A stretch of DNA of 62,231 nt, counting the filler, from Asterionella formosa (Eukaryota), in assembly GCA_002256025.1 (NCBI GenBank). It is 14 parts of 14 records of this genome, joined end to end, with 100 filler letters (N's around TTAATTAATTAA, not from the genome) between each part and the next. Parts side by side here need not be neighbours in the genome. Positions count along the whole stretch, not along the records: positions 8,929 to 13,290 come from NKIB01013572.1; 13 more parts are not named here. One strand, written 5' to 3'. Shown one piece after another: positions 1,365-51,249 of this stretch (its first letter is position 1; each line of letters begins with the position of its first letter). The notes beneath the pieces were generated by a model. That model was not told where the DNA came from. It worked only from the letters and a program-made list of their open reading frames with translations, and made no database searches. Made by a program: the position numbers and the translations under genes.

Positions 1365-1683
1365 GGAAGAACTTATGGGTGCCTGATGGTAGATTCCACC
1401 TCATTATTTACACCGGTAGTACGTTTCATTGTGAGACACGCATAAACGAACTAAGAAAAAAAAAATAAGGCTTTGCTCAAAAATCATCGCGACTTCTGAT
1501 AGTGATACAGGGTTAGGGTTACTGCTTTGTTGTTCTATTCTAAATACCGGTATTTCATTCATTGCCTAGCTTTGTGCCGGTAGTACATATGAACATTATT
1601 TTTCACAGGCAAAGGCGTTCAACGAAAAAAGTAAGCAAGTATCATAGTAAATGGCTGCCCTTTTGTAGGGGACATAAATAATG

Positions 1684-4203
1684 TTAGGAACTTGTGCTCC
1701 CAACTAACTTCATTTCAACTCGCACAACAGAGATATCGGTCAAAACGTGGCCAACGGCTTCGTCACATGCGAGCAGAGGAAGTGTCGTCTGCAGTTTGGC
1801 GTCAGTGTTCTTCCACGCTTGAGGTCTTGAAGCCTTGGAATATTCTGAAACAAACACGAGGGGGGATGGGTTCAACTTATCAACCTTCACGTAATACTCA
1901 ATATCACCAGTCATGAATCCTTCCATTGTCACCACCGCCTTTTGTTCCAATAACGACTCGGCGCTTCTTCCATTTGGCTCAACAACCGTTGCCCGGATGA
2001 GCCACGGGCCTACTGATGCATCTTCGCCGTACTTGACTCTTTGCCCTACACAGTCAAACTGATCAGCTTTTCGGAACGGAAAACTAGTTGGGAATAAGGC
2101 AAATACCCGTCCATCCTCTCGGAGAAATACAGCATAATCCTTGCGGCATTGGAGCCAACCAGATTTCAGTGTCCCTGCTTGAACTCGTTCCAAGAACGAA
2201 ACAACGCTTTTGTCGCTGAACATACCTAAACCAGCACTGTGCAATGCTTCTCGCAACACAAATTTCCAGAAAAAGAGGCTTTGCTCTTTCCATTCCTTCG
2301 TTTCAAATGTAATGCCCATGGGAAGGCGCTCCACTTTTCTCAAAAAAGGTCCAAGAATAGCCCCGTGCAATAGAGTCCTCGCTTCATCACTTTCTATCGC
2401 AAGAGAACTTAAATTATTCATGCTGCCTTCACCATAAATCTCTTCTAGCAGGGGTAGTAATTTGTTGCGCAGCTTGCCTCGAGTGGACCAATGCGGCGTG
2501 GTATCCTTGAAATATGGGACGCCGTACGTGTGTGCATAATCAAATATTTTGTCTTTTTCCAATGTCAATAGTGGTCGATAAATGACAACGCCGTCATTCT
2601 TAGAGACAGCCGTCATACCAGACAAGTCAAGAGGCCCACATCCCTTGTGGGCGTTGGAAAGTACATTTTCACGAAGATCACCGCGATGATGACCTAGCAT
2701 GACTCCTATTTCGACATTCCCATGAACATCACATTCTTTGACCGTTGCTCGATATGTGTGATATCGAGCGTCTCGAGCAATTCGTTCATAATCATCGCGG
2801 GCTGTGATTCCCCGCGTCACCTCATCGATACGACGGCACGTGTAGTTAATGTGCGATTGATGACAGTAGCGTTCCACAAAAGCAGCCTCTGCCGATGATT
2901 CAGGTCGGTTTCCATAATCAATATGAATGGCATATACTTTGATATTGTAGTTAGTTTCTGCCATGTGCGCCAAGACGGATGCAATTACCATGCTGTCGAC
3001 TCCTCCTGAGAGTGAGACTATGACTGGTACAGAAGTTTCACTCAGGGGTGTAACTCCTAGCTCTTTCAAAAAATTAGATATCGTAGTATACACCACATGA
3101 TTTACGGCGTGCTTCATGTCCACCTTGAACGCGACTGTTTCCAAAATGTCCTCGTCCAAAAACTCCAACTTTTGTTCCGTGCCTGTGCGCCTCGATTCAT
3201 CTTGAAGGACTGCCATTCTCCTATTCGTAGCCTTTCTAAACCGCCTTGTCATACCATCCAATTGCACTTGCATCTCGGCCATTGTTGCAATGTGGCATTG
3301 TACAAAAGCCACACTCGTCGTCGTCGAAGCATGGCGGTAGGGCATTATCCCAAAAATGTACATTGGTAGTGGTACCATACCAGAAGCGATTTCTGATTCA
3401 TGCTTTTCGAATAACAACTGTGCAATGTGGTATGCAAGATGGTCCATTGTGGATTGGGGTGGTAATGGTGACATCGCGTGCTCAGAGTAGTGCCTTTGTA
3501 TGTGCCTCGAGAATTGGTCAAGACAAACAATGGCGGCCAGTTTGCCATAGTAGCTATATATCTCATCACACCAATTTTCCCACAAGCCTTCTGACAATTT
3601 TAGTACTATGGACTCAAACTTGTCCCCAATATCAGCATCTACTTTTCTCCGTTGCTCCACAGAGGAATTGGCAATCATCCATAGCTTTTTCTGCGCTTCT
3701 TCCGGCGTGTATTGACCGAACCAGTAGTGGAGCACGGTCTGAATCATTTGCTGATTTGTTACTTTCGATTTTGTTGAAGGCAATAATGATCGGATGAACG
3801 ATTGAGCTGTCTGAGTAGTCGGAATGGCAACGACATCCGTGAGGAGATGATTCCATACCTTGATGGTGCCAGCCACAACGTTCCGCAGTCGATTGAACTC
3901 TCGCTTGACCAATGTCCCTACCGTCGTTTCCAGTAATCCTCCCACAACAGAGCTGCATAAGATCCGTTGTAGCTTGCACAATTCTCTCAGAGATCGAAAC
4001 TGCGGTGTGCTCCAGTACTTAATAACAAATAGCATCAACGCGACGCATGTCAGAGCTGGCCTTGGCTGAATCCTCAGAGGCGTCGAGGCTTGCTCTGGCA
4101 AGAGCTTCAAGAATACATTCCGACCTGTGGGTGCATATGGAGAGATTGCGCCCACAGGTGAAGCATGATGCTTGTTACTCATTATCGTCGTCGTTCTTGT
4201 CAT
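1684..4203 (-). CDS. tilS: DUF924-like domain fused to a PP-loop tRNA(Ile)-lysidine synthase (TilS/MesJ)-like domain
   Basis: 839-aa ORF. DUF924-type motifs VLHYWFG...LAAIVCLDQFSRHI...MPYRH, followed by the PP-loop SLSGGVDSMV, HIDYGNR, GHHRGD, RPLL and DTTPHWSTRGKLRN. Start codon uncertain. Confidence 0.85.
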   Translation of the reverse strand: MTRTTTIMSNKHHASPVGAISPYAPTGRNVFLKLLPEQASTPLRIQPRPALTCVALMLFVIKYWSTPQFRSLRELCKLQRILCSSVVGGLLETTVGTLVKREFNRLRNVVAGTIKVWNHLLTDVVAIPTTQTAQSFIRSLLPSTKSKVTNQQMIQTVLHYWFGQYTPEEAQKKLWMIANSSVEQRRKVDADIGDKFESIVLKLSEGLWENWCDEIYSYYGKLAAIVCLDQFSRHIQRHYSEHAMSPLPPQSTMDHLAYHIAQLLFEKHESEIASGMVPLPMYIFGIMPYRHASTTTSVAFVQCHIATMAEMQVQLDGMTRRFRKATNRRMAVLQDESRRTGTEQKLEFLDEDILETVAFKVDMKHAVNHVVYTTISNFLKELGVTPLSETSVPVIVSLSGGVDSMVIASVLAHMAETNYNIKVYAIHIDYGNRPESSAEAAFVERYCHQSHINYTCRRIDEVTRGITARDDYERIARDARYHTYRATVKECDVHGNVEIGVMLGHHRGDLRENVLSNAHKGCGPLDLSGMTAVSKNDGVVIYRPLLTLEKDKIFDYAHTYGVPYFKDTTPHWSTRGKLRNKLLPLLEEIYGEGSMNNLSSLAIESDEARTLLHGAILGPFLRKVERLPMGITFETKEWKEQSLFFWKFVLREALHSAGLGMFSDKSVVSFLERVQAGTLKSGWLQCRKDYAVFLREDGRVFALFPTSFPFRKADQFDCVGQRVKYGEDASVGPWLIRATVVEPNGRSAESLLEQKAVVTMEGFMTGDIEYYVKVDKLNPSPLVFVSEYSKASRPQAWKNTDAKLQTTLPLLACDEAVGHVLTDISVVRVEMKLVGSTSS

Positions 4204-4367
4204 GGTGAGAACTTCGTTCTTTTTGATCCTGAGAAGGGTTACATAGTAATTAATAGCGGCGGTGGTATCTTAATTAATCTTCCGGTATCTGGTAGTCTAC
4301 CAGGTCTACCTACTAACGGGCACACAGCGATGAGCATGATACCGATTCCTGGAACTCCGAATTGGTA

Positions 4368-7963: not shown

Positions 7964-8961
7964 TAAATGGATAGAGCGAACCTATCACGCACGACGAGAG
8001 ATGCCCAGTTACTAAAATGACTAATATTACATAGATTTTTTTTACGATAAGGGATTGATCGAAAAATTGCATAACTTGGTACGAAGGTGAGCAGTTCATC
8101 CTCCAAGCTCCATGTAAGGAAAAAGCGGGTCATGACACTGTAACATAAAGTGAATTCACAATTGCTCTTTATCGCCCTCTTAAATGAATTTGAATTTCCC
8201 TAAGAACATTGTAGATGTCATTGCCCGGAAGGATCCCTAGATCAAGTAACGGTAGCAAATTTCCGTCCCAATCGGCGGCTATCTGCAGATATTTAAAAGT
8301 ATGCTCTGCTAAGCCATTTTAAATGTCCATCTCATCATTTCGACCAAAGCCCACACTTGAGATGCAAGTACCAGGTAGCAAGGCATCCCCTTACTTGCTA
8401 TTTTGGCGACAAGTCGACATCATCAGTGGTGCACTACGCACAGAACACGTACATGATATACCGGTATGCCAGCAGTTAAAATGATTGTCATGATGGTTTT
8501 GTATACTTGACGAAATATTGATGCCAGCCAGAACTACCCACGTTTTACGGTTGTTCATCCGACGACGTACAGTACCGGTAAATAGGCTATTTCCGTTTCT
8601 ACATAGCAACCTGGTACCCGTACCCCGGTACTTACAGATATTTATGATAGTCTCCAACCGGTAGAACCGAATTATTATTACAACTGACGAGTGTACATGG
8701 CGGTACAAGGTACCGTTATACTACCGGTAAGCGTGTGGGCGAACCTGCTGGCTGCCTATCATACGAATATCGGAGGCCAACCGGTCGGCGTGGAATGTAT
8801 TACGGGCTAGGTGCGGGAATTGCAAACANNNNNNNNNNNNNNNNNNNNNNNNNNNNNNNNNNNNNNNNNNNNTTAATTAATTAANNNNNNNNNNNNNNNN
8901 NNNNNNNNNNNNNNNNNNNNNNNNNNNNAACAAGAACCAAATCACAACGAACAAATCAAAC

Positions 8962-10069
8962 ATGGCGAATATCAATGCTACACTCTCCCCAGCCCTCCAT
9001 CAGCGTGATGCTCCTATTGTGTCTGAGTATGTCGAACGAGTAGAGCTCGTTAGGAGTGGATGCTGTCCTTATCATGCAGACATTCAGCATCGGAAAACGA
9101 GTGTGTGGAAGACTTTGCGAGAGAGCTGCCCTACATGCGATCATGAACATATGAATACCTCAGTGCCTACTGCTCCAACGACTATAATGGCTCAGCAGCC
9201 TCTTTGGCCAGCAACAAAATCTCAGCAGTCAAGCACTTCAATTGCTGCAATTCTTTCAGAGATGAAAATGAATGAGCACGATGCTTGCATTCAAGAGGTC
9301 GGTCTCATGAAGCGTCAGAGCTTGGCTGTGAATAATTACAACAACAAGGTGGCGATTGCTACAGCAGATAGTATGAAGAACCAAATTCCAGCCACTTTAA
9401 TTAGATTTCAGCCTCCAAAATTGGAAAAATATGTCGAACGGTTGAAAGCAAATGATCCAAGTTTGACTAACCTTTACCTCTATGATAATTCAATTGAGGA
9501 AGAGGGCGCCAAGGCCATTGTAGAGGCTCTCAAGGTCAATACTGTCTTGAAAAATTCAATTGGTAAGGCCATTGCAGAGGCCCTCAAGGTCAATACTGTC
9601 TTGACAACACTTTCTCTCTATGATAATTCCCTTGGTGATGAAGGCGCCAAGGCCATTGCAGAGGCCCTCAAGGTCAATACTGTCTTAACAACACTTTCTC
9701 TCTATGATAATTCAATTGGTGATGAGGGCGCCAAGGCGATTGCAGAGGCCCTCAAGGTCAATACTATCTTGACAAAACTTTCTCTCTATGATAATTCAAT
9801 TGGTGATGAGGGCGCCAAGGCCATTGCAGAGGCCCTCAAGGTCAATACTGTCTTGACAACACTTGCTCTCTATGATAATTCAATTGGTAATGATTTAATA
9901 AATGACATTCAAAAACTTCTTGATGTAAACAAGAATCGCAAACCATCTGCCATCACAATTCAGCCAATCTCAACAACAACAAGTACAATGCCTATTTCTT
10001 CCCCAAAATCTCCAAAAGCAACCAATAGCAATTCCACTTATCCCATTTCCAGTAGTTGGTCGAAAATAA
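8962..10069 (+). CDS. Cys/His N-terminal module + partial ARM repeat + RI-like leucine-rich repeats (5' part, interrupted by a gap)
   Basis: CCPYH..DIQ..CPTCD module, one ARM-like unit, then about five 28-aa repeats LKVNTVLTTLSLYDNSIGDEGAKAIAEA and a Ser/Thr/Pro linker. Confidence 0.85.
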
Positions 10070-10553
10070 NNNNNNNNNNNNNNNNNNNNNNNNNNNNNNN
10101 NNNNNNNNNNNNNNNNNNNNNNNNNNNNNNNNNNNNNNNNNNNNNNNNNNNNNNNNNNNNNNNNNNNNNNNNNNNNNNNNNNNNNNNNNNNNNNNNNNNN
10201 NNNNNNNNNNNNNNNNNNNNNNNNNNNNNNNNNNNNNNNNNNNNNNNNNNNNNNNNNNNNNNNNNNNNNNNNNNNNNNNNNNNNNNNNNNNNNNNNNNNN
10301 NNNNNNNNNNNNNNNNNNNNNNNNNNNNNNNNNNNNNNNNNNNNNNNNNNNNNNNNNNNNNNNNNNNNNNNNNNNNNNNNNNNNNNNNNNNNNNNNNNNN
10401 NNNNNNNNNNNNNNNNNNNNNNNNNNNNNNNNNNNNNNNNNNNNNNNNNNNNNNNNNNNNNNNNNNNNNNNNNNNNNNNNNNNNNNNNNNNNNNNNNNNN
10501 NNNNNNNNNNNNNNNNNNNNNNNNNNNNNNNNNNNNNNNNNNNNNNNNNNNNN
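10070..10553. other. Intra-scaffold assembly gap (484 N, no linker)
   Basis: The N run lacks the TTAATTAATTAA linker and lies between the LRR and ARM arrays. Confidence 0.95.
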
Positions 10554-13290
10554 CTATTCGGATTCTGTCTGCTATGAATATTCATTCATCCAATGCTTCT
10601 GTTCAAGAATATGGTTGTGCAGCACTTTGGATTTTGGCTTCGAATGACGAAAACCAGGTGACAATTGCTGAAGCAGAATGCATCCCAACGATTCTTTCTG
10701 CTATGCAGATTCATTCATCCAATGCTGCTGTACAACTCTATGGTTGCAGAGCACTTGGGAACTTGGCTGTGTATGACAACAAAGACAACTACAACCAGGC
10801 AATGATTGCTGAAGCAGTAGGGATTACTACAATTTTGTCTGCTATGAAGAAGTGGTCATCCAATTCTAGTGTGCAAGAAAATGGTCTCATGAAGCTTCAG
10901 AACTTGGCTGTGAACAAGAACCACCAGGTGACAATTGCTGAAGCAGATGGTATCACTACAATTCTGTGTGCTATGAAGAAGCATTCATCCAATGCTGATG
11001 TTCAATACTATGGTTGCGGAGCACTTAAGAATTTGGCTGTGTATGACAACAACAACAAGGTGATGATTGCTGCAGCAGGAGGCATCACAATGATTCTGTC
11101 TGCTATGAAGAATCATTCATCCAATGTTAATGTTCAACACCATGGTTGTGCAGTACTTTTGAACTTGGCTTTGAATGAGAACAACCAGCTGACAATTTCT
11201 GAAGCAGAAGGTGTCACCACAATTCTTTCTGCTATGAAATATCATTCATCAAATGCAAATGTTCAACACTATGGTTGTGGAGCTCTCAGGAACTTGGCTC
11301 TGAATGAGAACAACCAGGTGACAATTGCTGAAGCAGAAGGTATTACTATGATTCTGTCTGCTATGAAGAATCATTCATCCAATGCTAAAGTTCAATACTA
11401 TGGTTGTGGAGCACTTTGGAACTTGGCTGTGAATAAAAGCAACAAGGAAGTAATTGCTGCAGCTGGAGGCATCACAATGATTCTGTCTGCAATGACGAAT
11501 CATCTATCCAATGCTATTGTACAGCACTATGGTTGCGCAGCACTTTGGAACTTGGCTGTGAATGACAACAACCAGGTGAAGATTGCTGAAGCAGAAGGTA
11601 TCACTACAATTCTGTCTGGTATAAAGAAGCATACATATAATGCAAATGTTCAACACTATGGTTGTGGAGCACTTTGGAACTTGGCTGTGAATGACAACAA
11701 CAAAGTGGTGATTGCTGCAGAAGAAGGTATCACTATGATTCTGTTGGCGATGAAAAAGCATCCATCCAATGCTTTTGTGCAGCACTACGGTTGCGCAGCA
11801 CTTTGGACTTTGTCTGTGAATGACAACAACCAGATAACAGTTGCAAAATCAGAAGGTATCACTTTGATTCTCTCTGCCATGAAGAATCATTCATCCAATG
11901 CTAATGTGCAGCACTATGGTTGTTTAGCACTTGGGAACTTGGCTGTGAACGAGAAAAATCAAGTGGTGATTGCTGCAGCAAAGGGTATCACTACTATTCT
12001 TTCTGCTATGAAGAATCATTCATTCAATACTAATGTTCAACACTATGGCTGTGAACCACTTGGGAACTTGGCTGTGAATGACGAAAACAAGGTGGCAATT
12101 GCTGCAGCAGGAGGTATCATAATCATTCTATCTGCTATAAAGAATCATTCATGCAATGCTAATGTGCAACACTTTGGTTGCAAAGCACTTGGGAACTTGG
12201 CTGTGAATGAAAACAACCAGGTGACAATTGCTGCAGCAGAAGGCATAACTACAATTCTGTCTGCTATGAATAATCATTCATCCAATGCTAATGTTCAACA
12301 CTATGGTTGTTAAGCACTTGGGAACTTGGCTGTGAATGACAACAACAAGGTGTCAATTGCTGCAGCAGAAGGTATCACTAATATTCTGTCTGCTATGAAG
12401 AATCATTTTTCCCAAGCTAATGTGCAGCAACAAGCGTGTATAGCACTTGGGAACTTGGCTGTGAATGTCAACAACCAGGTGAAGATTGCTGAAGCAGAAG
12501 GTATCACCACAATTCTTTCTGCCATGAATAATCATTCATCCAATGCTAATGTTCAACACTATGGTTGTGGAGCACTTTGGAGCGTGGCTGTGAATGACAA
12601 CAACAAGGTGGCAATTGTTTCAGCAGAGGGTGTCACCACAATTCTGTCTGCTATGCAGAAGCATTCATTGAATGCAAATGTACAGCACTATGGTTGTTTA
12701 GCACTTGGGGAGTTGGCTGTGAATGACAACAACAATATGGTTATTGGTGTAGTAGGAGGTATCACAATGATTCTGTCTGCTACGAAGAATCATTCATCCA
12801 ATGCAATTGTGCAGCATCATTGTTGTTTAGCACTTGGGAACTTGGCTTTGAATGACAACAACAATTTGGCAATTGCTGCAGCAGGAGGTGTCACTATGAT
12901 TCTGTCTTTAATGACAATTCATTCATCCAATGCTCATGTGCAGCACTATGGTTCTGCAGCACTTTGGAATTTGGCTATTAATGACAACAACAAAGTGGCA
13001 ATTGCTGCAGCAGAGGGTATCACTACAATTCTATCTGCTATGAATAATCATTCATCCAATGCTAATGTTCAACATCATTGTTGTGGAGCACTTGGGAACT
13101 TGGCTGTGAATGACAACAACCAGGTGACAATTGCTAAAACAGGAGGCATCATGATGATTCTGTCTGCTATGAAGAATTATTCATCCAATGCTAATGTTCA
13201 TCACTATGGCTGTGGTGCACTTGGGAACTTGGCTTTGAATAAGAACAACAAGGTGTTGATGGTTGCAGCAGGAGTTTCCAATATGATTCT
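10554..13290 (+). pseudogene. Armadillo-repeat array (about 21 x 43 aa) with one in-frame TAA; probably the continuation of the 8962 gene
   Basis: 129-bp tandem units, consensus MKNHSSNANVQHYGCxALxNLAVNDNNQVTIAEAEGITTILSA. TAA at 12311-12313 splits two same-frame ORFs. Truncated by the contig end. Confidence 0.8.
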
Positions 13291-13390: not shown

Positions 13391-14690
13391 TCGATGACAC
13401 CACACTACTTAGTGATGACGAACATCGAAAGTTTCAGATGTTAATTGGCATGTTGAATTGGGTAGTAACAATTGGGAGATTTGATGTCGCACACGCCACA
13501 ATGTCATTGTCAAGATTCTCTGCATGTCCAAGAAAAGGACACCTTGAGCGGGTATTGAAAGTGTTTGGCTACCTCAAGAGGAGGCCAAATAGGCGAATTG
13601 TCGTGGATTCTAGGTCGCCTGACTTCTCAGGATTTGAGGAAGATTTTTCTAAAGACTACGCAAGTATTCTTGGTGAAGACTACCCTGAAGCATCTGAGGA
13701 GGTTGACTGCAACCTACCAAAGCCATTGGTCAATGAGTTGGACATAACTGTGTTTGTTGACTCAGATCATGCCCATGACAAGATCACACGCAGGTCAGTG
13801 ACCGGTTTGATTATATTCGTTGGAAGAACACCAGTATTCTTTATGAGTAGGCGACAAGGAGCAGTGGAGACATCAACATACGGCGCTGAGTTTTGTGCTA
13901 TGCGCATTGCAGTTGAAGAAACCATAGCTATTTGTTATATGCTACGCTCAATGGGAGTGCGGGTGGCTCATGCCTCATACCTGTTCGGTGACAATCTTGG
14001 AGTAGTTCAGAATGTTACTATCAAGGATAGTTTGTTGAAGAAGAAACATGTTGCCATCTCATATCACAAGGTGAGGGAGGCGGCGGCATGCGGAATTGTA
14101 CATCCAGTCAAGATTGATGGAAGGTATAATTTTGCAGATGTGCTCATCAAGGCCCAGACTAACAAGGTGTTTGCCATGTTAGTTGGGGAGGTGATGCATG
14201 GATAGGGATTAGGGATTCGCATATTCTATGCAAGTATTATTATGGTCAATCAAACTATTGGATTATTGATTCAAGAGGAGTGATAAATACGGGAACGAGA
14301 TTGCTCGGGTTCTCCGGGTAATTGGTGACTTACTGCTTACTGTAACTGATGAATCAGATATCCACAGTATTGATGGGTACTGGTACAACGTGGTTGTACC
14401 ATCTACGTAGATACATACTAACCTAGTAAAAAGTACTGCTGGAACGGCCTCAAGTCACAACTTGTTGGACCTACCATTACAGCAGGGCACTAACAGGCCA
14501 ATTTGTCTTTAGATAGCATCTTATCAATCGAGCCAACTGATTTCCATGTAGCAAAAAATATTCGTGGTTTATATGAAGGCTATGTAGGCTAGGGTTTAAG
14601 GGTTTATAAAAAGAGAGGGACTAAATATCTTTTTCCAATAACTACATAATAAATATTATTTATAATGTCTTTCTGTTGATTTCGACATCA
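13391..14690 (+). mobile_element. Ty1/copia (CoDi-type) retrotransposon 3' end: RT-RNase H ORF (to 14205), polypurine tract and 3' LTR (14281-14690)
   Basis: RNase H motifs FVDSDHA, TSTYGAEF, LFGDN, KKKHVAISYH and NFADV. Purine tract CAAGAGGAG, then TGAT...ATCA bounding the LTR. Confidence 0.9.
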
Positions 14691-15358: not shown

Positions 15359-16398
15359 TTACCACAAATTGCGAAGTGCTGCTTTACCTTTTTCTTGAAC
15401 ACCAGCATTGGATGAGTAATTTTGCATAGCAGACTCAATTACGGCTTTTCCACCAGCATTGCATATTGTCACCTTGTTGTTTTCATTACTATCAGCCAAG
15501 TCATCAAGTGCTGCACAACCAGCATATTGCACAGTAGCATTTGAGGAATGAGTCTTCATTGCAGACAGAATTGTAGTGATACCTCCTGCTTCAGCAATCG
15601 TCACCTTGTTGTTTTCATTCGAAGCCAAGTTCTGAAGTGCTCCACAACCATATTCTTGCACAGTAGCATTTGAGGAATGAGTCTTCATTGCAGACAGAAT
15701 CGTAATGATACCTCCTGCTTCAGCAATCGTCACCTTGTTCTTGTCATTGGCAGCCAAGTTCATAAGTGCTCCACAACCATATTCTTGCACAGTAGCATTG
15801 GATAAATGAGTCTTCATTGCAAACAGAATCGTAGTGATACCTCCTGCATCAGCCATCGTCACTCTGTTGTTTTCATTAACAGTCAAGTTCTGTAGTGCTG
15901 CACAACCATATTCTTGCACAGTAGCATTGGAGGAATGAGTCTTCATTGCAGACAGAATCGTAGTGATACCTCCTGCTTCAGCAATTGTCACCTTGTTGTT
16001 GTCATTAAAAGTCAAGTCCCAAAGGTCTGAACAACCTTTTTTTTGAATGTCAGCATTCCGTTCATTCAATCTCATCTTTGAAAGAATTTTAGCAATCGGA
16101 AACGGAATTGAAGTGGTTGGAATTTGGGTTGAAGGCTGAGATTGTGTTGCTGGCAGAGAAGGAGACTGCTGAGGCATTGGAGTCACTGGAGCAGTAGGAC
16201 CTTGTTGGGTACTATTCAGACAATCGCATTTTGGGCTCCAAACAGATTCTTTTTGCAAAGTTGAATGTCTGGATGAGAAAGACAGACTGACAATCCATTC
16301 CTAATGAGCTCAACTTGTACACCATGCTCATTCAAAATTGGAGCGTCATTGTGGGTACGGGCGTATGAAGCATGGAGTGTAGGTGTAATATTCGCCAT
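15359..16398 (-). pseudogene. ARM-repeat paralog with the same Cys/His N-terminal module, no LRRs, frameshifted near 16235
   Basis: MANITPTL...DAPI...VELIRNG..CLSHPDIQ matches the 8962 N-terminus. A short deletion just before (C)PKCD shifts the frame into the 299-aa ORF, which has 5-6 ARM units. Confidence 0.8.
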
Positions 16399-16425
16399 GT
16401 TTGATTTCTTGTTCTTGTTGTTTAA

Positions 16426-38783: not shown

Positions 38784-40017
38784 TGAAGTATCTAACTAGA
38801 AGTAGTAGTATTTGTTGAATATATAAGCTTATTAATTAATCCTTATGTACAACTCATTTCCTGAACTGACATCAAAGTATAGAATGGGTGCTAGTCGAGT
38901 TCTCTCAATATACAATTCCGATATATTTGATATAACCCTAACCCTAAATACATCTGTATCGATGTGCAGGATTGCTCACTCTCCCACACTTGAGGGAAAA
39001 CCTTTTACCTATGAAAAGGTTTGATACGACGAATATTAATTTGTTCTGTAATGTGCATAGTGCGTTGAAAAGTAACTGTACCATTGGCGTGTACTTGAAT
39101 AATAGTATAAGGACCTCGTCCACGATCATCCAAAGTAGTAGGATTATCCAATAATATTAGAATCTCGTCACCCACTTTGTAATCATAAGATCGACGACGG
39201 AAATTAGCACGACGTAAACGTTCGTCAATTATCACTTGTCGACGTTGATATATTAATTGTAAATCTGTAATCAAAGGAATATTTAATATCATATCACGTT
39301 GAAAAACCCATGCTCCTGGTGAAATACATAATATACTATGAATAGTAGTTCGAGCTGGATATGATGCAGCTGCAAAACATGTATCCACAATATTTGGGCT
39401 TGAAATTCATTGATTGGAGGATGAGCCTTTAACATAACTCGTAGACTATTGCTGATAGATTGATGTAAACGTTCACAGATAGCATTTGCTTGTGGATTTT
39501 CTACAGTAGTAGTCATATCTTTGATTCCATTCAATACTAACATGTGTAAGAAAGGAGCACCAGTAAATTCACCTCCATTGTCATGTATACAACGTTCTGG
39601 ACGGGGATATCTGGCTAACCAATCATTTTCAAATTTCATCGTAATATATTCTGATGTTTTATTGGTGATACGTGAAATTTTTGCTAAATTGGTGACTGTG
39701 TCAATACAAGTTAGAGCACGAAATTCAATCGTTTGAGCAGCCACTATTATCTTCCATGGACCAATTAGATCTACTGCAACTTCTGACCATGGTAATAATA
39801 ATGCATTCCTGGGTGGAAGTTCACCAAAACCAGTACCAGGTAATTTTGTACGTTGACATGCTTCACATACTCTTACAATATGTTCCACTTTTGCTTTTAA
39901 TGTAGGGTGATAAAAATGTGTAGCAATTGTAGCATTTAATCTTGTCATACCAACATGAGCAAACATCTGATGATACCAATTAATAATAGGATCCAATAAT
40001 GATGTAGGAATAGCAAT
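38784..40017 (-). mobile_element. Ty3/gypsy retrotransposon 3' end: frameshifted integrase, polypurine tract and 3' LTR (38978-38784)
   Basis: HHCC (WYHQMFAH..CEACQ), VAVDLIGPW, IHDNGGEF and NPQANAICERLH; frameshift near 39390; stop at 39005; purine tract GGGAGAG, then TGAG...TTCA LTR. Confidence 0.9.
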
Positions 40018-47747: not shown

Positions 47748-48906
47748 TGTCAAGAATATAGCATCAATGGCTATAATGAGTCACAAGGACTGTGGACTCG
47801 ACTATAGTCCAATGAGTCAAATGGTGCGTTCCCATGTCAAGAAGCTTGCTAACGAGATTGATGTCTTAGATCAATCAGAAGAAGGTTTACATCAACGAAA
47901 AGGGAACACGAAGAACAGGTTCTCGAAGTGTGATGAATGGGATTGAAACTTAGTTTTAGTTTAATCTTATAATTAAGAAACAGTGAGAATTGACAGAGTA
48001 AGGTCAATAACGAAAACTAGCACAAAGGCTAGCAGCAGAAAGAAGATAACAATACTAGTGGTATTGCAGGTAAGTTCTACGTAAGAGGAACCCGTCAGAC
48101 GGGAAGGAGTACGAGACCTTTCAACACGCTTTAAAGCGTCCACTTTAAGGCCACAGGCTACTCAGGAACGATGGGAAGTGACGAAGACACGTCAGTGAGG
48201 TTGCCGACATTCGATGGGCAAGATGCTAAATGGCACATGTGGAAAGCGAAGTTTCTCGCATACGCGTGCTACAAGAACTTTCAAGAAATACTTAACGGTG
48301 ACGAACTACCCAGAGGAGAGAAAGACCTAAAGGGCGATACGATCGTGTTGTCGGATGCTGACGAGAGACGCATCCGAAGGAGCAACACAGTTGCTTACGC
48401 AAGTCTGATAATGGCATGCCAGAGTGGGCCATTCGGACACGTAAATAATGCAAGAAGTGCCGAGTTTCCTAACGGCAATGCTAAAGAAGCATGGGACAAG
48501 CTCATTTCGACGTATGAGTCAGGCAACATGGCGAATGTCATTGCCTTGTCCCACCAATGGACGAAGTGCACTCTAGGGGAAAACGAGAACCCCGACAGCT
48601 GGTATGTGGAGTTGGATCGAATCCCGGAACGATTGGGCAATACAAGCTCTGCCGTTTCGGATGGTGCCTATGTGGCACACATGATCAACAACCTACCGGA
48701 GAGCTACAAGAGTTTGGTAGTAGGAAGGTTCGGCCTGGCGCGCAACACGCTAACGGTCGAAGAGATTAAGACAGACATCCGGGACTACTACGATCTATAT
48801 GTCCGGGATGACGTCAAAACGACTGACAAGAACAAGAGTGAACAGGCCTTCTACACGAAAGGGAAGTTCAAAGGTGACTGTCGTAAGTGTGGCAAGTATG
48901 GCCACA
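47748..48906 (+). mobile_element. Ty1/copia retrotransposon 5' end: LTR (about 47748-48126) and gag ORF (48171 to contig end)
   Basis: Gag motifs LPTFDG..WHMWKAKFLAYA, AKEAWDKL, NNLPESY and zinc knuckle CRKCGKYGH; LTR TGTCAAG...TTTCAACA (left edge tentative). Confidence 0.88.
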
Positions 48907-49006
48907 NNNNNNNNNNNNNNNNNNNNNNNNNNNNNNNNNNNNNNNNNNNNTTAATTAATTAANNNNNNNNNNNNNNNNNNNNNNNNNNNNNNNNNNNNNN
49001 NNNNNN

Positions 49007-49132
49007 CTCATTTCCTGAACTGACATCAAAGTATAGAATGGGTGTTAGTCGAGTTCTCTCATTATTGAATTCCGATATATTTGACATAACCCCAACTCTA
49101 TATATATCTGTATCGATGTGCAGGATTGCTCA
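49007..49132 (-). mobile_element. Gypsy LTR 5' portion (same family as 38784-38978), cut by the contig start
   Basis: Aligns with 38853-38978 and ends exactly at the TGAGCAATCC LTR start. Confidence 0.85.
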
Positions 49133-49538
49133 CCTGGTACCTGGTACCGGTACTATTGTATCAGGTTGCTTGACCGGACACTCTGACACAGACGGAAAGC
49201 AAATACAATCTTGGTACCAGGTACATACGATAAATTCTTCACACGAGTGCAGCACAGGACGGAATCCAGAATCCATTTATATGACTCCCGTGATGATGTG
49301 CGTCGAAATTGGGCAGCAAGCACATCACAAAATATATATATGTAGCTACCGGTATAATGCATGTGTGAAAATCGTACATGAATTTGTACGGTTGACCTGG
49401 TATGTATACATGGTACTCAATGCACTATGTACCGGTATGCGCTCTATCATGTGACGATTAGAGCTAAATCTCGACCATACCCGCTATAATCATATGCTTG
49501 TTAGATGCTGGCACTCACTCTCTCACAACACTCCAATC

Positions 49539-51249
49539 ATGCCCTTATCCTCCGACCCTCCACCATTAGAATCGCAAGATGACATACTCGAAGCATCACA
49601 GTCGTCACTCGCGGAGCAAGTCGCACTAAGTGACTTGGAACTTCATCCATTCCGAGTTCAACATGGTTGTGACGCCATACAATTGCATCGAGGTGTTCGA
49701 TCTTGGGCTGCCATGACAACGAAAGGTGGCATTATAGGCATGTATGGTACGAAACGTGCAGAGTGTGTATTGCATGTATTCATTTATATGTATATACATA
49801 AACTTATACTACTTATCCATGGTCTATTATTCCAAAGAAACGCGAGATGACGCAATGCGGGCTGCGATCTTGTCCGTCATGAACGAGAATGACATTGTTC
49901 GCATTTTAACAGAGCAGGAGAGGGAACAGAAAGACCCATCCATGAAGCCTACTACTAATTCTAATACTTCTAGTACTACCGGAACTTCCAAATCGTCCTT
50001 CATGGTACTAGGAACGAACGACATTCGAAGGAAGAAAATTTCTCCTGCAATGGACAGCGCCGAAAAGTCTCCTCCTAAAGTGACTCATAATAAACAAGTA
50101 TTGGAGAAAACTGAATTGAATCAACGACAACAACCATCATCAGTGCCGCCATTGAAACGAACACTTAGCAAGAATGAAAAGGTGGTGGGACACTATACAA
50201 GTTCTCACAAGGCTCAAACTGGGACCACTGCTCAGAACGAATTAATTGAAGGAGGTACGTCCAATGAACTCATCATCGTCCCCGTCATGTTCTTTGTTAC
50301 AGTCGTTTTGGGACACTTGCTATAACAAAATCGTTTTCACACAGTATGCAAGCAAGGGGATGGAGTTTCGAAGGGAAGAAACTTCCAGTATACAGCCATG
50401 GGACAAATTCCAGTTGACACGAAGGAATCCAACAGCAACAAGAAACGCCATCGCGAGATGCCGGAAACCAATCCTAAATCATTGGCTATGAAACATGATT
50501 TTTCAACTACAGCGCCGTCCGGAAGCGGACCAACTGGGAATCGCGCTTCCTTGGCAATACCAGTTCAGAAAAAGATCACCGCAGGGAAATCCGTCAAAAA
50601 GACAATTGAACTGGTGGATGCAGAAACCAATGAATTGGTCATCTACTTTCGTAAAACCATCGATGCTTGCCGTACACTGGGGTTAACACGAAATAGTGTA
50701 TTACGGGCGTGTCAGGAGGGTATTGACGTACTGAAGGGATACAAGCTTCGCTATGGAGATATGTGTGAAGAATATAAGTCGTTTGAATTTGGAACAATTT
50801 CTATTGAAAACCTTCCACATTCTGATACACACGCCATTGGTTCTGATGTAATGATTAACAAAACTCGAGTGAAGGAAGCCGAATCGAAACCTAATGAAAA
50901 TAGGAACGAATCGAGACCTAATGGTAAAAGGAACGAATCGAAACCTAATGATAAAAGGAATGAGTCGATAGAGAAGGAAATGATGGTAGTGGCAACTACC
51001 CTGGTGTCAATGGAGTCTCAGCTACCTGCCTTGTCCAAGAGTTATGATATGAGGTGCATGATATGTCAGGAACAAAATGTGCAAGTCGTCTTTGAGCCGT
51101 GTTATCATTGTGTCTTGTGTTCGACATGTTCTTTACAATCTTGCAAGTCTTTTTGTCCTCTTTGTCGCACTCCCATCACAAAAAGGGTGAAACCAACAAT
51201 GGGCCGATTGTTGCAACCCCGAATCTACTCTGCATATTCGTTCATGTAG
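49539..51249 (+). CDS. AP2-like + NUMOD1-like + C3HC4 RING protein (exons 49539-49746, 49838-50254, 50345-51249)
   Basis: Two phase-1 GT-AG introns (91 and 90 nt) join three ORFs in frame. C-terminal CMIC..VVFEPCYHCVLCSTC..CPLCR RING; KKTIELVDAETNELVIYF..TIDACRTLGL..VLRAC..KGYKLRY NUMOD1-like HTH. Confidence 0.75.

Follow-up and report, generated by a model that had tools for sequence, protein, structure and literature searches.

What kind of protein family is represented by two diatom genes that begin alike and then continue with different repeats? The stretch of DNA analysed here, called the window (62,231 nucleotides from Asterionella formosa, GCA_002256025.1), is a chain of ~4.4-kb contigs with N44/12-bp/N44 linkers between them, drawn from an assembly of 68.4 Mb in 15,436 contigs. 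As the linkers are artificial, contigs adjoining in the window are not genome neighbours, and the two genes, here called A and B, lie on separate contigs. Both begin with AAATCAAACATGGCGAAT and continue with a Cys/His head module and a linker, aligned at 79% column identity; they then diverge, gene A carrying leucine-rich repeats (LRRs) and ~26 armadillo (ARM) units and gene B ~5.5 ARM units. In both respects, the common start and the differing repeat content, the preliminary description of this DNA was right.

Genes A and B are members of one diatom family of modular repeat proteins. Its gene-start cassette, consisting of the 5' untranslated region (UTR), the Cys/His head, and the linker, is joined in uninterrupted frames to exchangeable ARM, LRR, ankyrin, and kinase cassettes. 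Copies are often gained, truncated, and lost; within them, the fastest change falls on a few surface residues of a conserved repeat scaffold. We give roughly even weight to the view that this family is a birth-and-death repertoire of non-self binders lacking a nucleoside triphosphatase (NTPase), a proposal drawn from the sequence features described below.

Family Size, Turnover, and Cassette Exchange

Used as a query against this genome, as the preliminary description had proposed, the head gave 91 protein matches and 47 DNA matches; the family is far beyond chance, and large rather than small. We annotated 87 of the 91 matches; gene B was omitted, as were three matches that are second pieces of a head or gene counted before. 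The annotated heads fall into 75–81 clusters at 94–97% identity. After hand corrections, 22 loci count as intact; the head is damaged in 24, the array holds a stop or frameshift in 23, and a contig end truncates the remaining 18. Broken copies make up 47 of the 69 judgeable loci, in line with the rapid pseudogenisation claimed earlier, and some of them keep long frames. The family shows many copies, frequent pseudogenes, and presence/absence variation, the features by which birth-and-death evolution is recognised; the last rests on one assembly fork.

The simplest architecture is a head followed by up to 26 ARM units. Head-ARM-LRR-ARM arrangements occur within single gap-free frames in five loci (L049, L055, L061, L065, and L078), and head-ARM-LRR with an unannotated tail in L034 and L047. 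A kinase follows the head, with or without intervening ARM units, in 10 of the 87 loci; L048 and L073 consist of a small head, a linker, and the kinase.

Exchange of cassettes is visible in pairwise breakpoints. The first 600 bases of L049 and L051 are 97–99% identical, after which their tails differ, while the pairs L034/L047 and L019/L011 have heads 75–88% identical and tails mostly 91–98% identical. The repeat arrays are thus swappable, as had been suggested. A tree of heads was tried as proof of shuffling and rejected: kinase and LRR labels grouped no more closely than shuffled ones (159 and 186 of 500). We relied on pairwise breakpoints instead because this tree is poorly resolved. Of 316 ARM units, only 73 are closest to another unit of their own locus, consistent with between-locus exchange or with duplication of whole arrays.

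Several individual loci show further features. L083 (636-4798) is a chimera of a damaged head, LRRs, ankyrin repeats, a different type of kinase, and ARM units, with one frame change. The heads of L077, L081, L086, and L088 end just past the first knuckle and are followed by apparent opposite-strand ARM sequence, possibly reflecting inversions or tail-to-tail fusions. The head-ARM member L010 has a C-terminal hydrophobic stretch (1744-2091) that could be a membrane anchor. The subfamily of L043, L045, and L046 begins with Met-Gly-Asn-Val-Ala-Ser (protein seen for L043 and L046), which we take to be a possible N-myristoylation signal.

Selection on the ARM and LRR Arrays

The tandem ARM units are 42–43 amino acids (aa) long and match Pfam Arm and ARM_LRRK2. 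Their closest solved relatives are Vac8 (E 2e-18 against PDB sequences), ARMC4, LRRK2, and plakophilin. The LRRs are 28-aa LxxLxLxxNxI repeats of the ribonuclease inhibitor (RI)/NLRC3-like type.

We collected 327 distinct ARM units by a fixed 41-codon pattern, which under-samples units with indels or core changes. Dropping 11 stop-bearing units left 316, of which 98 come from intact loci and 218 from others. The ratio of nonsynonymous to synonymous change (dN/dS), obtained by nearest-neighbour counting at differences of ≤20 nt, is 0.08 in the ARM core of intact loci and 0.16 in that of the others. In intact loci it reaches 3.45 at site 36 (95% confidence interval 2.6–4.4) and 2.64 at site 40 (1.8–3.5). 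Sites 26, 29, 30, and 33 have a ratio of 1.44 in intact loci, or 1.1–1.3 when each changed codon is counted once, and the other ARM surface about 1.0–1.2 (1.18 in intact loci). Counted once per changed codon, sites 36 and 40 give 2.1 and 1.8 (intact loci) or 1.7 (all); tree parsimony gives 2.9 and 2.5. The fast sites flank the helix-3 Asn, presumably lining the peptide groove as in importin-type ARM proteins. In the LRRs, positions 3, 5, 7, and 8 of LxxLxLxxN are the most variable (53 units); by established LRR structure these lie on the concave strand. Variable surface sites are found in both kinds of array.

The Cys/His Head

The head usually reads C-x2-H-x20-C-x2-C and carries a basic KK-x3-GGWK hairpin, the loop having a net charge of about +3. 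The four putative ligands are invariant in 24 aligned heads, which were selected by that pattern. Over 40 heads dN/dS is 1.08, with the ligand positions fixed by the same selection, and it is low only at core G, D, I, L, and P. At a ratio of ~1 within the family the head cannot be called constant, as it had been. Four members, L090, L095, L096, and gene A, shorten the loop in frame and keep all four ligands; in gene A these are C35-x2-H38-x17-C56-x2-C59, three residues below the family norm. In a model of a paralogous head (mean predicted local distance difference test score 79, core 95) a helix, a short hairpin, and a second helix follow one another.

Comparisons with known domains were negative. 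There was no match in Pfam (best E 0.023 over 24 heads) or among PDB sequences (best E 0.05). A fold search with the model gave no Z≥2 among 48,161 chains, a search in which small folds are easily missed, and Foldseek returned nothing at E≤0.001. The ESM Atlas gave only bacterial clusters with scores ≤0.85 and low recognition, and nothing for a Seminavis head. The head matches no known domain in the Pfam, PDB sequence, and fold searches, and no housekeeping domain, which the preliminary description had named as counter-evidence, emerged from them; as judged from these searches, the head is an undescribed domain, and it most likely binds one zinc ion. The titles and abstracts listed by our literature searches contained no description of the family or the module, although supplements of diatom genome papers could list the family.

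A profile of the head retrieved 360 representatives at E≤0.001. Among the best 150 of these, the four-ligand pattern is present in 136, 78 with two to four copies and 58 with a single copy, which is N-terminal in 45 of the 58. The closest matches may derive from the same species as the source. Pfam partners in the best 150 are ARM (nine), ankyrin (three), and MORN, Peptidase_C14, Mind-bomb SH3, decapeptide, and DUF7640 (one each). Looking up 30 proteins gave eight organism-named clusters, all including diatoms; the names are Thalassiosira profunda, T. pseudonana, Conticribra, Cyclotella, Detonula, and Seminavis. Two of the eight also contain Alexandrium-labelled entries, clustered at 90% with T. 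pseudonana, which are probably contamination. A head-plus-ARM protein occurs in Seminavis robusta (CAB9503325.1).

Other layouts were seen among the profile matches. P0077 has a head, a Pro/Ala/Thr linker, and a caspase-family domain (metacaspase), and P0081 a head followed by a membrane span and a Cys-rich region. P0053, P0064, and related entries are long low-complexity diatom proteins with two to four copies of the module, a MORN-like motif being present in 23 of 78. Three proposed origins or classes were rejected. Two queries for a multi-copy housekeeping class of the module in this genome returned only this family; none of 61 pattern matches in viral contigs was confirmed; and prokaryotic matches were limited to four loci with partial, 16–30-residue matches at E 6e-5 or worse, taken as chance.

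The head would hold zinc and present its basic and aromatic hairpin. Docking of the hairpin on anionic membranes or nucleic acid is quite possible, and recruitment of other head-bearing proteins is a tentative second option. Binding to the protein's own ARM groove, or action as a nuclear-import signal, seems very improbable. It is doubtful that the head is a dispensable passenger. Similarly doubtful is a role as a diatom-specific homotypic adaptor, the functional counterpart of a death fold in an NTPase-free intracellular immune circuit; such an adaptor would link ARM/LRR sensors to IRAK-like kinases (as in L048 and L073) and to metacaspases (as in P0077).

The head and array data also bear on a largely neutral expansion, in which ectopic recombination copies and shuffles both the arrays and a strong start cassette, the head travels as part of that cassette, and decay is the fate of most copies. 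Most copies are indeed broken, dN/dS is close to 1 both in the head and on the ARM surface outside the groove, and the family sits on short contigs, with some copies beside transposon genes. We regard this explanation as unlikely all the same. It does not account for the low ratio in the ARM core, lower still in intact loci, the conserved core residues of the head, the in-frame loop shortenings that spare all four ligands, the head-plus-ARM proteins of S. robusta, or the intact motifs of the kinases described next.

Kinase Cassette and Possible Functions

Of 54 genomic matches to the kinase, just 11 fall on the 10 contigs that bear a head. As most lie elsewhere, there must be at least one start cassette besides the head. 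At E≤1e-14, 45 of 48 PDB matches are named plant receptor-like kinases or IRAK1/4, and the others are two unnamed entries and one CTR1. The G-loop, lysine, HRD, and D[CY]G motifs are kept in eight of the nine kinase loci tested. By these sequence matches the family kinase is IRAK/Pelle-like. No death domain was matched in the N-termini of the family, which are made of the Cys/His head and ARM/LRR arrays and not of the ectodomain plus membrane span of receptor-like kinases. Downstream of the kinase, Cys/His RING-like stretches without a Pfam match occur in L048 (5636-6598), L059 (3619-3900), and L087 (3856-4203), and L048 has a further tail beyond it, likewise without a Pfam match.

Genes A and B have no kinase, and no Pfam match to NACHT, NB-ARC, Roc, or COR. 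Across the family segments searched, Roc and COR were without a Pfam match, leaving no Roc-COR tandem.

We propose that the ~75–80 cytosolic modular proteins could act as renewable binders of foreign targets that themselves change fast, for example proteins of parasites, viruses, or transposons. The fastest-changing ARM and LRR residues would line ligand-binding faces. Kinase-bearing members, with catalytic motifs intact, would signal after binding, and kinase-less members such as those encoded by genes A and B might serve as partner sensors, adaptors, or decoys.

Rather than in defence, the same architecture might act as a diversifying toolkit in recognition of, or signalling from, endogenous or same-species targets, as in mate or strain recognition, ubiquitination substrate adaptors, or cell-cycle or stress signalling; we think this alternative rather unlikely. 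It is in keeping with the closest solved ARM relatives, which are housekeeping scaffolds, with the HRD type of the kinases, and with the long low-complexity diatom proteins that carry several modules. LRR and ubiquitin-ligase expansions are reported in PMC7335047 to be general adaptive features of a diatom genome. Conserved host targets, however, leave unexplained the large share of broken copies, the insert that is present or absent upstream of gene A, and the dN/dS above 1 at predicted binding-face sites.

A number of observations weigh against a repertoire of non-self binders. Because the synonymous rate itself varies from site to site in the repeat (0.3 to 2.7), site 36 alone stands above all local rates; the result is marginal at site 40, and that at sites 26, 29, 30, and 33 does not hold up. 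Counts of dN/dS may also be raised by gene conversion between repeat units, and ARM sites were assigned to the groove by analogy with importin-type proteins and not with a model. About two thirds of the judgeable copies are broken, the lesions being those called from the assembly. Apart from a few core positions the head is near-neutral, and several long open frames lack head ligands. Among 157 non-repeat segments of ≥85 aa downstream of heads, none matched NACHT, NB-ARC, or Roc. The RNA support for gene A, given below, consists of contigs without a silent control. The likeness to birth-and-death immune families that the preliminary description drew stands for family size, swappable arrays, lesions, and fast sites on predicted binding faces, and fails for the constant head.

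How diatoms recognise chytrids, oomycetes, viruses, or bacteria is an open question in the field, and our literature searches listed no paper on diatom receptors of this kind. The family offers testable candidates for such recognition: its variable sites are named, some members bear a kinase, and strains vary. It also contains an unannotated domain of ~55 residues, found in several diatom genera, that could be expressed and solved, and a natural armadillo library varied at predicted pocket positions that would be of interest to protein engineers.

Gene A and Gene B

Gene A is interrupted in the window by an assembly gap, which the preliminary description had proposed to close with long reads. 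It is closed by two 614-bp contigs, C9800 and C9798, which overlap both edges by 127–129 identical bases and continue the frame without a stop. They are two alleles with 12 differing sites, comprising eight amino-acid-changing codons and four silent ones. Together with gap-free frames of paralogues, they rule out that the LRR and ARM parts belong to different genes, and the single gene assumed earlier stands. C6404 and C4564 carry the 3' end 100 codons further, to the stop. The whole frame is 1,501 codons long and encodes the head, half an ARM unit, six LRRs, and ~26 ARM units. Its ARM units of exactly 43 aa (n=18) have a mean DNA identity of 79%, and its three central LRR units 93–95%.

Each gene had been described as carrying a single disabling lesion. 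In gene A there is one in-frame TAA, which need not be disabling, as 1,074 residues with, by arithmetic, ~16 ARM units precede it; from the reading frame, gene A probably gives a truncated product of that length. None of 32 listed run contig pieces spans this TAA. Gene B does have a frameshifting lesion, a 25-nt deletion between 16236 and 16235 in which the third ligand codon is lost; its head also has a 6-nt insertion near 16290, making the lesion not the only one. We infer from these changes that gene B is a pseudogene.

The assembly offers two paths for gene A at its 5' end, across the gap, and at its 3' end, which suggests a heterozygous diploid. In one upstream path, C13311 (L056, 607-2199), a frameshifted paralogue in divergent orientation sits in a 1.6-kb insert; the other, C12261 (L106, 612-772), is without the insert, and its flanks are 93% identical to those of C13311. 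Many of 27 family upstream regions end like the 5' UTR of gene A. The ARM-to-LRR junction of gene A recurs in L100 (C273) at 85% DNA identity. L100 itself, on the minus strand (1640-4210 in reverse coordinates), is an 857-aa frame with an LRR-type start that holds a remnant of the N-terminal extension of the head, half an ARM unit, and a long LRR array.

We compared four sequencing runs whose labels are algae, lake-water, or freshwater metagenome. The unique 5' part of gene A is covered by RNA-library contigs of three studies, consistent with transcription without proving it; X2 covers 520 nt with no difference, and X3 has five differences. A contig of run X9 has a 1-nt deletion at window position 9017, at a depth of 5, which may be an error. 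At window position 11045, run contigs have in-frame insertions of 3 nt (X3) and 9 nt (X2), which count as strain variants.

Comparison with Known Systems

Brown algae and fungi already provide examples of this pattern of turnover and repeat shuffling. In Ectocarpus, genes for LRR-ROCO and NB-ARC-TPR candidate receptors arise and are lost at high rates, their repeats are shuffled, and the repeat surfaces are under diversifying selection; an immune role is only proposed for them (Zambounis et al., PMC3341825). The likeness lies in stramenopile repeat families, turnover, repeat shuffling, and fast repeat surfaces. The differences are that one repeat corresponds to one exon in Ectocarpus, whereas frames here are uninterrupted for up to 26 units; that a Roc or NB-ARC NTPase is present there, whereas none was found here and ARM is the main repeat; and that an undescribed Cys/His head and an IRAK/Pelle-like kinase belong to the diatom family. 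The nucleotide-binding, leucine-rich repeat receptors (NLRs) of the fungus Podospora have near-identical internal repeats, between-locus exchange, rapid turnover, and raised dN/dS (PMC13449251). Repeat exchange, turnover, and, by the counts made here, raised dN/dS are alike. However, those receptors have a central signal transduction ATPase with numerous domains (STAND) and cell-death effector domains, and the ARM units of gene A are not near-identical. Because the NTPase is missing, the present family is not a member of either receptor class.

The best PDB sequence matches to the family kinase are IRAK4, BIK1, PBL2, and SymRK. The likeness to IRAKs and receptor-like kinases is moderate (best E 1e-19 to 1e-21), with placement by sequence match and no death domain. 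IRAK4 is laid out as death domain, linker, and kinase, and the head-linker-kinase order of L048 and L073 resembles it.

The ARM arrays share the 42–43-aa repeat with Vac8, ARMC4, the ARM region of LRRK2, and designed armadillo binders. Unlike these scaffolds, the family is natural, multi-copy, hypervariable, and often broken, and the Roc-COR of LRRK2 is absent from it. Literature searches found no source for ARM position numbering. Designed binders show modular peptide binding with exchangeable pocket residues, described without position numbers (PMC11228518), so the groove positions given here are putative.

For the head, two zinc-binding modules invite comparison. CHC2-type zinc ribbons, the zinc-binding domains of primases, have the ligand order Cys-x2-His...Cys-x2-Cys, and LSD1-type zinc fingers occur in the prodomains of plant type I metacaspases. 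The head has the ligand order of CHC2 without a Pfam, PDB sequence, or fold match to it. The layout of P0077 is like that of the LSD1 metacaspases, a zinc finger, a Pro-rich linker, and a metacaspase, but the head matches no LSD1 profile or fold. From both it differs in its usual spacing of 20 and in its basic hairpin loop. The Seminavis genome paper reports tandem expansions of LRRs; its main text is without the strings 'armadillo', 'NLR', and 'immun'.

Feature Coordinates and Retroelement Remains

Table 1. Parts of gene A and gene B, in positions of the window.
Feature	Position	Strand	Remarks
Gene A, end of 5' UTR and start codon (ATG 8962)	8953..8970	+	part of the family gene-start cassette
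Gene A, head: N-terminal extension and C-x2-H-x17-C-x2-C	8962..9141	+	ligand codons within 9064-9138
Gene A, Pro/Gln/Thr linker	9142..9243	+	
Gene A, half ARM unit and LRR entry segment	9244..9462	+	
Gene A, RI/NLRC3-like 28-aa LRR cassette	9463..9936	+	six matches, one shortened in frame; Pfam LRR_6 E 1e-21
Gene A, LRR exit and Ser/Thr-rich linker	9937..10069	+	common to other LRR members
Gene A, assembly gap of 484 N	10070..10553	+	real length 357 bp, in frame, ~2.5 ARM units
Gene A, 21 ARM units of ~43 aa	10554..13290	+	runs on 100 codons into C6404/C4564
Gene A, in-frame TAA	12311..12313	+	14th ARM unit of the window, repeat position 33, codon 1,075
Gene B, start cassette and damaged head (ATG 16398)	16220..16407	-	
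Gene B, linker, ~5.5 ARM units, terminal unit, and stop	15359..16219	-	out of frame with the ATG

Retroelement remains lie elsewhere in the window. A frame at 13393-14205 has no Pfam match, and we take it to resemble the RNase H end of a copia element. An integrase zinc domain lies at 39289-40017, and a copia gag followed by a RING frame at 48135-51249.

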